A DNA stretch of 64,000 bases from the sequence record MH355584.1; one strand, written 5' to 3'. This document shows, piece by piece, positions 52,673 through 55,337 of this stretch; the stretch's first letter is position 1, and each line of letters begins with the position of its first letter. Origin of the DNA: Escherichia phage vB_EcoM_JB75. A model generated the notes under the pieces. The model ran no database searches. It saw only the letters and a program-made list of their open reading frames with translations, and was not told the DNA's origin. The position numbers were made by a program, and so were the translations under genes.

Positions 52673-53701
52673 ATGTCATCAATACCTTGGATTGATAATG
52701 AGTTTGCGTATCGTGCATTAGCTCATTTACCTAAATTCACACAAGTAAATAATAGTTCAACTTTTAAATTGCGGTTTAGATGCCCTGTTTGTGGAGATTC
52801 AAAAACCGACCAGAATAAAGCTCGTGGATGGTATTATGGTGATAATAATGAAGGAAATATTCATTGTTATAACTGTAACTATCATGCACCAATCGGAATA
52901 TATCTAAAGGAGTTTGAACCTGATTTATATCGTGAGTATATCTTTGAAATAAGAAAAGAAAAAGGTAAAAGTCGTCCAGTAGAAAAACCTAAAGAACTTC
53001 CTAAACAACCTGAGAAGAAAATAATTAAATCTCTTCCGTCATGCGTTAGATTAGATAAACTGGCGGAAGACCATCCAATTATAAAATACGTAAAAGCTCG
53101 TTGTATTCCAAAGGATAAATGGAAATATCTTTGGTTTACAACTGAATGGCCTAAATTAGTTAATAGCATAGCACCGGGAACATACAAAAAGGAAATTTCT
53201 GAGCCTCGTCTTGTTATTCCAATTTATAATGCTAATGGAAAAGCTGAGTCTTTTCAAGGACGTGCATTAAAGAAAGATGCTCCTCAAAAATATATCACCA
53301 TTAAAGCTTATCCTGAGGCAACAAAAATCTATGGAGTCGAACGAGTTAAAGATGGTGATGTATATGTTCTAGAAGGACCTATAGATTCGCTTTTTATTGA
53401 AAATGGTATAGCTATTACGGGTGGTCAATTAGACCTAGAAGTTGTTCCATTTAAAGATAGACGCGTGTGGGTTTTAGATAATGAACCTCGTCATCCTGAC
53501 ACTATTAAGCGAATGACTAAATTAGTTGATGCAGGAGAAAGGGTTATGTTTTGGGATAAATCTCCCTGGAAATCAAAAGATGTTAATGATATGATTAGAA
53601 AGGAAGGTGCAACCCCTGAACAAATTATGGAATATATGAAAAATAATATTGCCCAGGGGTTAATGGCTAAAATGCGGTTATCTAAATATGCCAAGATTTA
53701 A
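52673..53701 (+). CDS. 61: DNA primase gp61
   Basis: 342 aa; N-terminal zinc ribbon CPVCGDS...CYNC; near-identical to recalled T4 gp61. Confidence 0.97.
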   Translation: MSSIPWIDNEFAYRALAHLPKFTQVNNSSTFKLRFRCPVCGDSKTDQNKARGWYYGDNNEGNIHCYNCNYHAPIGIYLKEFEPDLYREYIFEIRKEKGKSRPVEKPKELPKQPEKKIIKSLPSCVRLDKLAEDHPIIKYVKARCIPKDKWKYLWFTTEWPKLVNSIAPGTYKKEISEPRLVIPIYNANGKAESFQGRALKKDAPQKYITIKAYPEATKIYGVERVKDGDVYVLEGPIDSLFIENGIAITGGQLDLEVVPFKDRRVWVLDNEPRHPDTIKRMTKLVDAGERVMFWDKSPWKSKDVNDMIRKEGATPEQIMEYMKNNIAQGLMAKMRLSKYAKI

Positions 53702-53898
53702 ATTAACCCAACTAAAGCAAATGCTAGATCTACGAATGTATCAAGAGTAACTACTGGAATATTAACACCATGCGCAATTGCAATTGGTGATAAAATAAAG
53801 TTCCAGAGTAAAATTCCTACCATAGCAGAAATAGTAAAAGCTATACGTTTTTTATTACCTTTTATGGCATTAACAAGTGCCATTAATTTTTGTGCCAT
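53698..53898 (-). CDS. Small membrane protein on the minus strand (66 aa)
   Basis: Strong SD AAGGAGGA 3 nt before ATG; two hydrophobic helices; convergent with gene 61, stop codons overlap; no + strand ORF covers this interval. Confidence 0.55.
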   Translation of the reverse strand: MAQKLMALVNAIKGNKKRIAFTISAMVGILLWNFILSPIAIAHGVNIPVVTLDTFVDLAFALVGLI

Positions 53899-53942
53899 AT
53901 GTCCTCCTTTAAATTAATATTTATCACAAATTTCATAAATTT

Positions 53943-53972
53943 GTTTACTTTCTCAGCTTGTTATGGTATTAT
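53943..53972 (+). promoter_or_regulatory. T4-type early promoter
   Basis: -35 GTTTAC, 18-bp spacer, -10 TATTAT; drives ORF 53998. Confidence 0.65.
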
Positions 53973-53997
53973 AAAATAAATTGCTGAGGATGATATA

Positions 53998-54558
53998 ATG
54001 ATTAATAAAATTGTGCATGAAATGGCTTTAAACGGAGATTCATATAAAATATCTGCCGTAGTTGAAAATTTCATACTTAATAAAGTAAAAGAATATTTCA
54101 CTGATTGTTCAGTTAGTTATCAAGAAAAAATGGTTTTAACCGATGATACTGAAAAATCAAATAATTTGTTTTGTTCTAATTTTATAACTAAGAAGCGTAC
54201 TAGAAGATTTGATATTGTTATTTCTCGCAACGGTAAAAAGCATATAATTGAAATTAAACACCAAGTTGGTGGAGGTACAGCTATTGATTCGGTTGGAATA
54301 TATTTAGAAGATAAAGAGAAATTAAAAGAATACACAAAAACTGAAAACCCTGTGTCATTGATGATATTAGATTTTTTGCCATGCGGATATTATCCACGTA
54401 ATAAATGGACAAAAAGAGAATCATTTACTGATAATCCAACCATCCAAGCAAGGTTTAATGAATATGCTAAATCACAAAACGTGTTAGTATTACTATCAAA
54501 TACATATGATGAAGAATTATATAATTCGTTTTTTGCTGCAATAAATGAGAGAATATAA
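53998..54558 (+). CDS. PD-(D/E)xK nuclease-fold protein (restriction-endonuclease-like)
   Basis: 186 aa; RFDIVIS...HIIEIKHQ gives D-x(12)-E-x-K spacing typical of PD-(D/E)xK active sites; RBS GAGGA; stop overlaps dam ATG (TAATG). Confidence 0.6.
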
Positions 54559-55337
54559 TGCTAGGAGCTATCGCGTATACAGGTAATAAACAGTCATTAT
54601 TACCTGAACTTAAGCCTCATTTTCCAAAATATGACAGATTCGTGGATTTATTTTGTGGAGGTTTATCAGTGTCTTTGAACGTCAATGGTCCTGTATTGGC
54701 CAATGATATTCAAGAACCAATTATTGAAATGTATAAGCGTCTTATTAATGTATCATGGGATGACGTATTAAAAGTAATAAAGCAATATAAACTATCAAAA
54801 ACATCAAAAGAAGAGTTTTTGAAATTACGTGAAGATTATAATAAAACTAGAGATCCTCTTTTACTTTATGTTCTTCATTTTCACGGGTTTAGTAATATGA
54901 TTCGTATAAACGATAAAGGAAATTTTACTACTCCGTTTGGAAAAAGAACTATAAACAAAAATAGTGAAAAACGCTTTAATCACTTTAAACAAAATTGTGA
55001 TAAAATAATCTTTAGTTCATTGCATTTTAAAGATGTCAAAATTCTAGACGGCGATTTTGTATATGTGGACCCTCCATATCTTATAACAGTTGCTGATTAT
55101 AATAAATTTTGGTCAGAAGAAGAAGAAAAAGACCTTTTAAATCTTTTAGATTCTTTAAATGACAGAGGAATAAAATTTGGACTGTCGAATGTTTTAGAGC
55201 ATCACGGAAAGGAAAACACTCTTCTTAAAGAATGGTCTAAAAAATATAATGTTAAGCATCTTAATAAAAAATACGTCTTTAACATATATCATTCCAAAGA
55301 AAAGAATGGAACTGATGAAGTATATATTTTTAATTAA
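54558..55337 (+). CDS. dam: DNA adenine methyltransferase Dam (GATC)
   Basis: 259 aa; DPPY catalytic motif and FCGG AdoMet motif; matches recalled T4 Dam. Confidence 0.95.

Follow-up and report, generated by a model that had tools for sequence, protein, structure and literature searches.

The DNA analyzed here, a 64,000-nucleotide window from Escherichia phage vB_EcoM_JB75 (sequence record MH355584.1), carries between the primase gene 61 and gene 56 an accessory cassette that consists of an early-type promoter-like site, an open reading frame for a 186-amino-acid protein (ORF186) and dam, the gene of an N6-adenine DNA methyltransferase. Next to the cassette, on the opposite strand, lies a small gene for a 66-residue protein (ORF66). 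We read the interval 53910–55338 as a phage-borne GATC restriction-modification-like module, with the dam gene of phage T4 as its orphaned methylase, and give this reading an even chance of being correct. From sequence comparison, the linkage of ORF186 to dam appears to be the strongest evidence for it. The Dam proteins of T2 and T4 methylate GATC.

In the proposed mechanism, the cassette's own early promoter would drive the expression of ORF186 and of the translationally coupled Dam. ORF186 would be a small, presumably homodimeric PD-(D/E)XK endonuclease that requires Mg2+, belongs to the structural class of EcoRI and MunI and cuts GATC or GATC-containing sites lacking N6-adenine methylation; these sites are proposed because they are the ones that Dam methylation would protect. 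Dam would thus serve as the protecting methylase, while the phage genome would additionally be shielded by its glucosyl-hydroxymethylcytosine (glucosyl-HMC). As enterobacterial host DNA is already Dam-methylated and the phage DNA contains glucosyl-HMC, the likely targets would be foreign DNA present in the infected cell in an under-methylated state, for example that of co-infecting or superinfecting phages and plasmids, and the cassette would be a weapon in the competition between phages. T4 would descend from a phage with both genes, a deletion having removed the nuclease and left dam behind as an orphan. We infer the nuclease activity, GATC specificity, methylation sensitivity and biological role of ORF186 from the observations presented below.

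The ORF186-dam pair and its distribution

The first-pass annotation, made from the sequence alone, had described ORF186 as a 186-residue protein with a nuclease fold and an early promoter of its own, whose stop codon overlaps the dam ATG (TAATG). Position, length and overlap are as it described, and the nuclease fold is borne out by the core of an AlphaFold2 model and by invariant D...ExK residues. The promoter fared less well: a site matching the consensus is present (Table 1), conserved in T2 and deleted in T4, but the promoter scan as a whole was not above chance (7 sites found, 7.1 expected), which leaves it a plausible site only. The model, calculated on the family alignment, has an alpha-beta-beta-beta-alpha-beta core with a mean predicted local distance difference test score of 79.1. 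The structure comparison suggested in the first-pass annotation returned a PD-(D/E)XK fold with MunI as the top structural neighbour; the neighbours belong to the ordinary Type IIP restriction enzymes and not to the homing enzymes. A PD-(D/E)XK restriction-endonuclease-like fold is therefore supported for ORF186.

Nine members of the ORF186 family, down to 29–32% identity, share the invariant residues E23, D72, E85 and K87, which make up a full E...D...ExK catalytic set with the Glu in helix 1, the Asp on strand 2 and E-x-K on strand 3. R69, H82, H88, Q89, G93-T-A-I-D-S98, P118, S120 and D125 are likewise invariant in the nine, and the catalytic set is followed by a conserved block that extends from K87 to residue 98. 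Between homologues, the proportion of differing synonymous sites (pS) is saturated at 0.65–0.88, while that of nonsynonymous sites (pN) is 0.26–0.51, which shows that ORF186 is under purifying selection and is not a chance open reading frame.

Each of the six lineages examined has its ORF186 homologue immediately upstream of a D12-class Dam gene, with stop and start overlapping by 1, 1, 7, 35 or 20 bases, or abutting. The Dam of the window has about seven differences from T4 Dam in 259 residues, is encoded at the same locus and is annotated as Dam in the matching phage records. Among T4-like genomes the pair is found in three genomic contexts, namely between 61 and 56 in Tequatrovirus-like genomes, between denB and ndd in the Jiaodavirus KPV15, which infects Klebsiella, and directly upstream of rIIA on one metagenomic contig, and it therefore moves as a unit. 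The pairwise identities of nuclease and methylase co-vary (r = 0.79), with the methylase always more conserved, as is usual for restriction-modification pairs. The coupled, restriction-modification-like arrangement proposed in the first-pass annotation was present in every homologue found and is the best description of the two genes.

The limits of the cassette were drawn from phage RB33 (gene order 61, ORF66, 56), in which the alignment to the window stops at 53909 and resumes at about 55378, with only a diverged gene 56 promoter in between. Among 503 Tequatrovirus records with the 61/ORF66 flank, 147 contain the ORF186-dam junction, about 33, including T4, have kept dam with ORF186 deleted, and the rest are without both genes; no nuclease-only record was seen among the records sampled. 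Synteny across the 61-dam interval thus reveals a presence/absence polymorphism among Tequatrovirus records. What T4 has in this interval, a question that the first-pass annotation had left open, can now be answered. A 548-bp deletion between two ATCACAAA repeats has removed the promoter and ORF186 codons 1 to about 160, and the last 25 or so codons are left as a frameshifted 3' remnant directly before dam; ORF66 is intact in T4 and unannotated. KarlGJung (Bas37) has lost codons 1–121 through a different deletion and kept dam, and a few records carry frameshifts in ORF186, so the gene has been lost by at least two independent deletions (T4 type and KarlGJung type) in addition to frameshifts. 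The methylase-only state arose at least twice and the nuclease-only state was never seen, an asymmetry that a nuclease harmful without its methylase would produce. On the best reading of these sequences, T4 dam would be the orphaned methylase of the cassette.

Allelic variation was also seen at the 3' end of ORF186. A T-run at window positions 54535–54545 has six Ts in the window and five in T2, T4 and phage 107. In the T2 allele, with its T-run one base shorter, the last eight residues, FAAINERI, are replaced by LLQ; the protein with the five-T run ends in ...SFLLQ (181 amino acids) and its stop codon is uncoupled from the dam ATG. The 1988 GenBank entry for T2 dam, M22342, contains the entire ORF186 at bases 83–640, unannotated. 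Its translation breaks after codon 37 through a frameshift, while modern T2 records read through to residue 179, and the frameshift, which kept the gene from view, probably goes back to a sequencing error of that time. On a metagenomic T4-like contig (L005) with an ORF186 of 63% identity, a 93-amino-acid open reading frame (4010–4291) separates ORF66 from the nuclease gene. Its match to a gp56-type nucleoside triphosphate pyrophosphohydrolase is limited to the C-terminal half (phrog_4856, positions 84–179 of 195), and it may be a recombination scar from the insertion of the cassette beside gene 56.

Relationship to known proteins and restriction systems

The ORF186 family is tiny. An exhaustive profile search of 1.84 billion proteins found 11 representatives, a word-indexed search of 5.8 billion proteins gave 10 matches, and a wider profile search with E-values up to 10 returned the same dozen or so ORF186-like proteins only. 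Every homologue with a readable genomic context belongs to a T4-like phage, and ORF186 was found in 163 phage records. Neither a tblastn search of 72,556 plasmids nor a sequence search of the PDB, both with E-values up to 10, gave any match. ORF186 falls into phrog_8706 of PHROGs, a family of unknown function; it matched PADLOC REase_II with an E-value of 9e-5 and Pfam RE_BanI below threshold (E = 0.0093). One GenBank record, that of phage Shinka, labels it as a putative DpnII restriction endonuclease, and the other database records label it as hypothetical. A literature search returned nothing relevant on the ORF186-dam pair, on 'dam.1' or on restriction-modification in T-even phages. What is new here is a restriction-enzyme-like family that was encountered only in T4-like phages and is strictly partnered with T-even Dam, and the reading of T4 dam as a deletion orphan; the kind of system, a Type II restriction-modification module that is also carried by viruses, is already known.

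DpnII and MboI are restriction enzymes that cut GATC, are sensitive to Dam methylation and have Dam-class methylases as partners; ORF186 likewise has a Dam-class GATC methylase as its partner. The Pfam DpnII profile was matched by five of seven ORF186 family members (best E = 8.3e-5). In hhalign comparisons with a DpnII-family alignment of 14 proteins, all carrying PF04556, E23, D72 and E85 of ORF186 fall on E152, D201 and E214 of DpnII, and the distances between them, 49 and 13 residues, are the same in both proteins. The helix Glu is aligned in this way together with the strands RFD[IF]VI and [IL]IE[IV], and the secondary-structure elements follow one another as they do in the C-terminal half of the DpnII model. 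On the other hand, DpnII has N216 (E-V-N) where ORF186 has K87 (the canonical E-I-K), and ORF186 aligns only to positions ~124–226 and is without the ~125-residue N-terminal region of DpnII, a protein of about 280 amino acids. The top structural neighbour is BstEII for the DpnII model and MunI for ORF186, and in the ORF186 pair the nuclease gene precedes the methylase gene. A distant relationship to DpnII is plausible from these alignments, while membership of the family is not established.

By modeled structure and catalytic motif, ORF186 appears closer to the MunI/EcoRI branch than to DpnII. ORF186 and MunI are similar in size (186 and 202 amino acids), and D72, E85, K87, H88 and Q89 of ORF186 align by hhalign with D83, E98, K100, R101 and Q102 of MunI, whose sequence was verified, so that D72-x12-E-I-K-H-Q-x-G corresponds to D83-x14-E98-I-K100-R-Q-D-G. 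EcoRI has E-A-K-H-Q-G in the same place as the E-I-K-H-Q of ORF186, and the invariant G-T-A-I-D-S of ORF186 resembles the EcoRI recognition motif G-N-A-I-E-R, a resemblance only. However, this block is located 5 residues after the catalytic lysine in ORF186, whereas the corresponding block is located 15 residues after it in MunI and 26 in EcoRI, and hhalign gave MunI a probability of 11% over 27 columns, i.e., no significant sequence homology. The ORF186 family also differs from these enzymes in its partner, which is Dam (GATC) and not an AATT-type methylase, and in being found only in T4-like phages.

A GATC restriction-modification system of viral origin, CviAI, is encoded by chlorovirus PBCV-1 (PMC7248222). 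CviAI (A579L/A581R) resembles the ORF186-dam pair in belonging to a lytic virus and in having an early-expressed GATC N6-methyladenine methylase within a viral restriction-modification system (PMC7248222). It differs in its eukaryotic host and in the DNA of PBCV-1, which is without hypermodified cytosine, so methylation is its only self-protection; the likeness drawn here is one between the two systems as described.

The relatives of the phage Dam were also followed as a route to a DpnII-type partner. Its plasmid relatives (~35–43% identity) belong to AlwI-type, FokI-type or unannotated systems. Several of the closest ones inspected (L015, L017 and L019; ~38–43%) are Type IIS methylase domains from Gram-positive bacteria, located beside AlwI-family enzymes, and another (L018; ~38%) is located beside a FokI-type enzyme. 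There was no DpnII-type or enterobacterial Dam system among the plasmid relatives inspected, and this route gave no help on specificity.

Evaluation of the restriction-modification reading

Several points weigh against a restriction-modification module. The cleavage, specificity and methylation sensitivity of ORF186 are deduced from its partner gene. The usual hosts are Dam+, and a methylation-blocked GATC enzyme would have no obvious target in them. DNA with glucosyl-HMC should already resist most Type II enzymes (PMC7653180), and a need for protection by Dam is therefore hard to see. In the gene order the nuclease comes before the methylase, two thirds of the Tequatroviruses are without the cassette, and the T2-type allele of ORF186 has a changed C-terminus (181 amino acids). 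Against Pfam DpnII (PF04556), ORF186 itself scored 16.8 bits (E = 0.0045), below the gathering score of 23 bits, and the hhalign comparison with the DpnII family had a probability of 27% (E = 6.8e-4, 91 columns). Finally, neither a bacterial homologue nor a bridging sequence was found in the word-indexed, exhaustive and wider profile searches.

GATC is the most under-represented 4-bp palindrome in the window, with 64 occurrences observed and 197 expected (observed/expected ratio 0.32; next lowest palindrome 0.71). We considered this avoidance as a footprint of the cassette and rejected it, because RB33, which is without the cassette, is equally depleted (0.34; positions 20001–70000), and Mosigvirus JK42, without a dam gene at the 61-56 locus, even more so (0.13; positions 1–50000). 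These phages therefore avoid GATC generally and irrespective of the cassette; candidate causes are MutH/Dam of the host, GATC restriction systems and nuclease-carrying relatives.

In the main alternative to this reading, the two enzymes would cooperate instead of opposing each other. ORF186 would then be a methylation-dependent, DpnI-like nuclease that shreds the cytosine-containing host DNA after Dam has completed its GATC methylation, with glucosyl-HMC sparing the phage genome. Co-transcribed and coupled genes are what cooperating enzymes would lead one to expect, Dam-methylated enterobacterial host DNA would be an abundant target, and T-even phages are known to degrade host DNA. The content of about 0.4–0.5% N6-methyladenine in T4 DNA counts in the same direction (PMC7653180). 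However, if host Dam sufficed, nuclease-only phages should be viable, yet none were seen while methylase-only phages arose at least twice. ORF186 is also a single PD-(D/E)XK domain with no separate methyl-reading domain, its structural neighbours are ordinary Type IIP enzymes, and the phage would endanger methylated GATC sites of its own genome where HMC is not glucosylated, all of which makes a DpnI-like role unlikely. The presence/absence polymorphism at an intergenic site and the three loci in T4-like genomes would alternatively fit a selfish, homing-type endonuclease that cuts cassette-free relatives in mixed infections, so that repair spreads the cassette, with Dam marking self; free-standing homing endonucleases are present in the region as well, e.g., segF beside gene 56 in T4. 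We find this more doubtful, as no known homing endonuclease is accompanied by a methylase of its own, ORF186 is structurally most similar to Type IIP restriction enzymes and not to homing enzymes, the ends of the cassette revealed no duplication of a target or insertion site, and Dam, acting in trans, would protect the co-infecting genome too.

Even less probable, in our view, is that ORF186 performs no restriction and is an inactive or non-specific relic, for instance a DNA-binding accessory protein or a regulator of dam expression or activity. Its small size without the DpnII N-terminal domain, its repeated loss with dam kept (T4, KarlGJung) and the 181-residue T2 allele, which suggests that C-terminal change is tolerated, could be explained in this way, but neither the four catalytic residues nor the adjoining H-Q vary at ~30% identity, with synonymous sites saturated, which is hard to reconcile with a dead enzyme, and MunI is a complete restriction enzyme of only 202 amino acids. 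The first-pass annotation had further suggested that ORF186 and ORF66 form a toxin/immunity pair or a superinfection or anti-defence module. The genes are adjacent and divergent and ORF66 is a membrane protein, but we regard the pairing as hardly credible and rejected it on the distribution of the two genes: ORF66 is found in 692 records and ORF186 in 163, and most phages with ORF66, which is kept beside 61, are without ORF186 and dam. In addition, the ORF186-dam pair of KPV15 has no annotated ORF66-like neighbour, no Klebsiella phage is among the ORF66 matches, the metagenomic contig with the pair upstream of rIIA (L010) shows only rIIA downstream of it (with just 140 bases upstream on the contig), and ORF66 has a late-type promoter motif, whereas that of ORF186 is early-type.

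If ORF186 is the cognate endonuclease, T-even dam would be the methylase of a phage-borne restriction-modification cassette. Loss of the nuclease from a restriction-modification pair is a well-known route to orphan methylases, and T4 would show this origin midway, with the nuclease remnant still in front of dam. We suggest tentatively, as a possibility with the odds against it, that T-even Dam is the modification half of an inter-phage restriction-modification weapon specific to T4-like phages, that the nuclease is a minimal EcoRI/MunI-like enzyme that evolved toward GATC, and that dam-only phages such as T4 keep the immunity. Phages with both genes would then cut the under-methylated DNA of co-infecting competitors, and dam-only phages would retain dam as immunity against nuclease-carrying relatives. 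This would explain T-even Dam, the role of which has, to our knowledge, been unclear since the 1980s; as far as we know, protecting DNA against some restriction systems is the one role demonstrated for the Dam proteins of T4 and T2. ORF186 would also represent a new small restriction-enzyme family known only from T4-like phages, and a rare instance of an obligately lytic, hypermodified phage with a restriction enzyme of its own, probably for competition with mobile DNA. The intact pair is present in T2 and in several phages of the BASEL-collection type, and T4 offers a natural methylase-only control.

ORF66 and the surrounding region

The positions of the features discussed are collected in Table 1. 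Several Tequatrovirus genomes, vB_EcoM-fFiEco06 and YUEEL01 among them, match the window with 100% identity over the 1,061 bases compared (53600–54660). Locally, the genes run in the order sp, an open reading frame in the 61.2 region, 61.1, primase gene 61, ORF66 (minus strand), ORF186, dam and gene 56.

Table 1. Positions in the window of the cassette, its parts and the neighbouring features.
Feature	Position	Strand	Remarks
Primase gene 61	52673–53701	+	
ORF66, 66 amino acids	53698–53898	-	Converges on gene 61; 4-base overlap with the 61 stop codon
Terminator-like hairpin and T-tract, 3' of gene 61	53864–53893	+	Inside the 5' coding part of ORF66
ORF66 Shine-Dalgarno sequence, AAGGAGGA	53902–53909	-	Read from sequence
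Accessory cassette (early-type promoter, ORF186, dam), 1.43 kb	about 53910–55338	+	Between the ORF66 Shine-Dalgarno sequence and the gene 56 promoter
T4 late-promoter-like motif, GATAAATA (consensus TATAAATA)	53918–53925	-	19 nucleotides upstream of the ORF66 ATG
Left ATCACAAA direct repeat	53923–53930	+	T4 joins the left repeat (ATCGCAAA in T4) directly to ACGTGTTAG
Promoter-like site, TTTACT-17-TATTAT with TG extension (sigma-70/T4-early-type)	53944–53972	+	Consensus match only
ORF186 Shine-Dalgarno sequence, GAGGA	53986–53990	+	7 nucleotides before the ATG; read from sequence
ORF186, 186 amino acids, PD-(D/E)XK Type II restriction-endonuclease-like	53998–54558	+	TAA stop codon at 54556–54558
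ORF186 putative catalytic codon E23	54064–54066	+	
ORF186 putative catalytic codon D72	54211–54213	+	
ORF186 putative catalytic codon E85	54250–54252	+	
ORF186 putative catalytic codon K87	54256–54258	+	
Right ATCACAAA direct repeat	54471–54478	+	T4-type records resume matching at window position 54471 (query base 172)
dam, D12-class N6-adenine DNA methyltransferase, 259 residues	54558–55337	+	Pfam PF02086, E = 6.5e-51

The description of ORF66 in the first-pass annotation, with its coordinates, strand, Shine-Dalgarno sequence and convergence on gene 61, agrees with our reading of the sequence. So does its description as the lone reverse-strand gene, as no other gene of the 40 annotated in 22.8 kb of fFiEco06 is on the opposite strand, and its homologue in a Mosigvirus is the only such gene among 88. 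The gene was found in 692 phage records from at least three genera, always antisense to and abutting the end of the primase gene, with identities of at least 89% in Tequatrovirus, about 55% in Mosigvirus and 44% in Gaprivervirus. It matches phrog_2024 and is kept without dam in RB33, JK42 (Mosigvirus) and TH40 (Gaprivervirus); the RB33 record notes it as 'dam.1', although RB33 is without dam. Between Tequatrovirus and Mosigvirus, the ratio of nonsynonymous to synonymous substitution rates is about 0.15–0.25, and between two metagenomic lineages pS is 0.90 and pN 0.15; therefore, ORF66 is under purifying selection and is not a chance open reading frame. ORF66 is an ordinary conserved T-even gene and not a partner of the nuclease.

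According to its hydropathy profile, ORF66 has a basic N-terminus (net charge +5), a transmembrane segment at about residues 19–42 with the conserved pattern W-N-x(3-4)-P-x-A-x(2)-[HQ]-G, and a hydrophobic, acidic amphipathic C-terminal segment. The motif NATAAATA (CTAAATA in one lineage) is located 16–24 nucleotides upstream of the ORF66 ATG in all seven sequences examined, in flanks that are otherwise unrelated, and the ATAAATA heptamer has only three copies on the minus strand of the window; ORF66 is therefore probably expressed late. The T at -13 of T4 late promoters is reported to be poorly conserved and variable among T4-like phages (PMC1524935). Taken together, ORF66 is most likely a late-expressed small inner-membrane protein that is independent of the cassette, as judged from these sequence features. 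In TH40, at ~2690–2800, frameshifted fragments directly follow the ORF66 homologue and resemble a second ORF66 type (MGTLFYQIWKLADKKDKK...) present on two metagenomic contigs (L005 and L008), so there may be two paralogous types of this small membrane protein, at times arranged in tandem; the TH40 record is marked UNVERIFIED, and sequencing errors in these fragments are possible.

The terminator scan found two sites where 0.3 were expected, and several related records annotate a terminator feature in the interval of the hairpin listed in Table 1. This terminator, which would serve plus-strand transcripts leaving gene 61, lies within the first 12 codons of ORF66 on the minus strand, so that the same bases are used both as a terminator and as coding sequence, and the palindromic stem would fold in the ORF66 mRNA as well, near the start codon. 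Upstream of the primase gene, a 118-amino-acid open reading frame at 52148–52504 occupies the place of T4 gene 61.2 (208 amino acids), to which it looks unrelated. RB33 carries both 61.2 and the 118-residue open reading frame, which points to a further presence/absence polymorphism just upstream of the primase gene.

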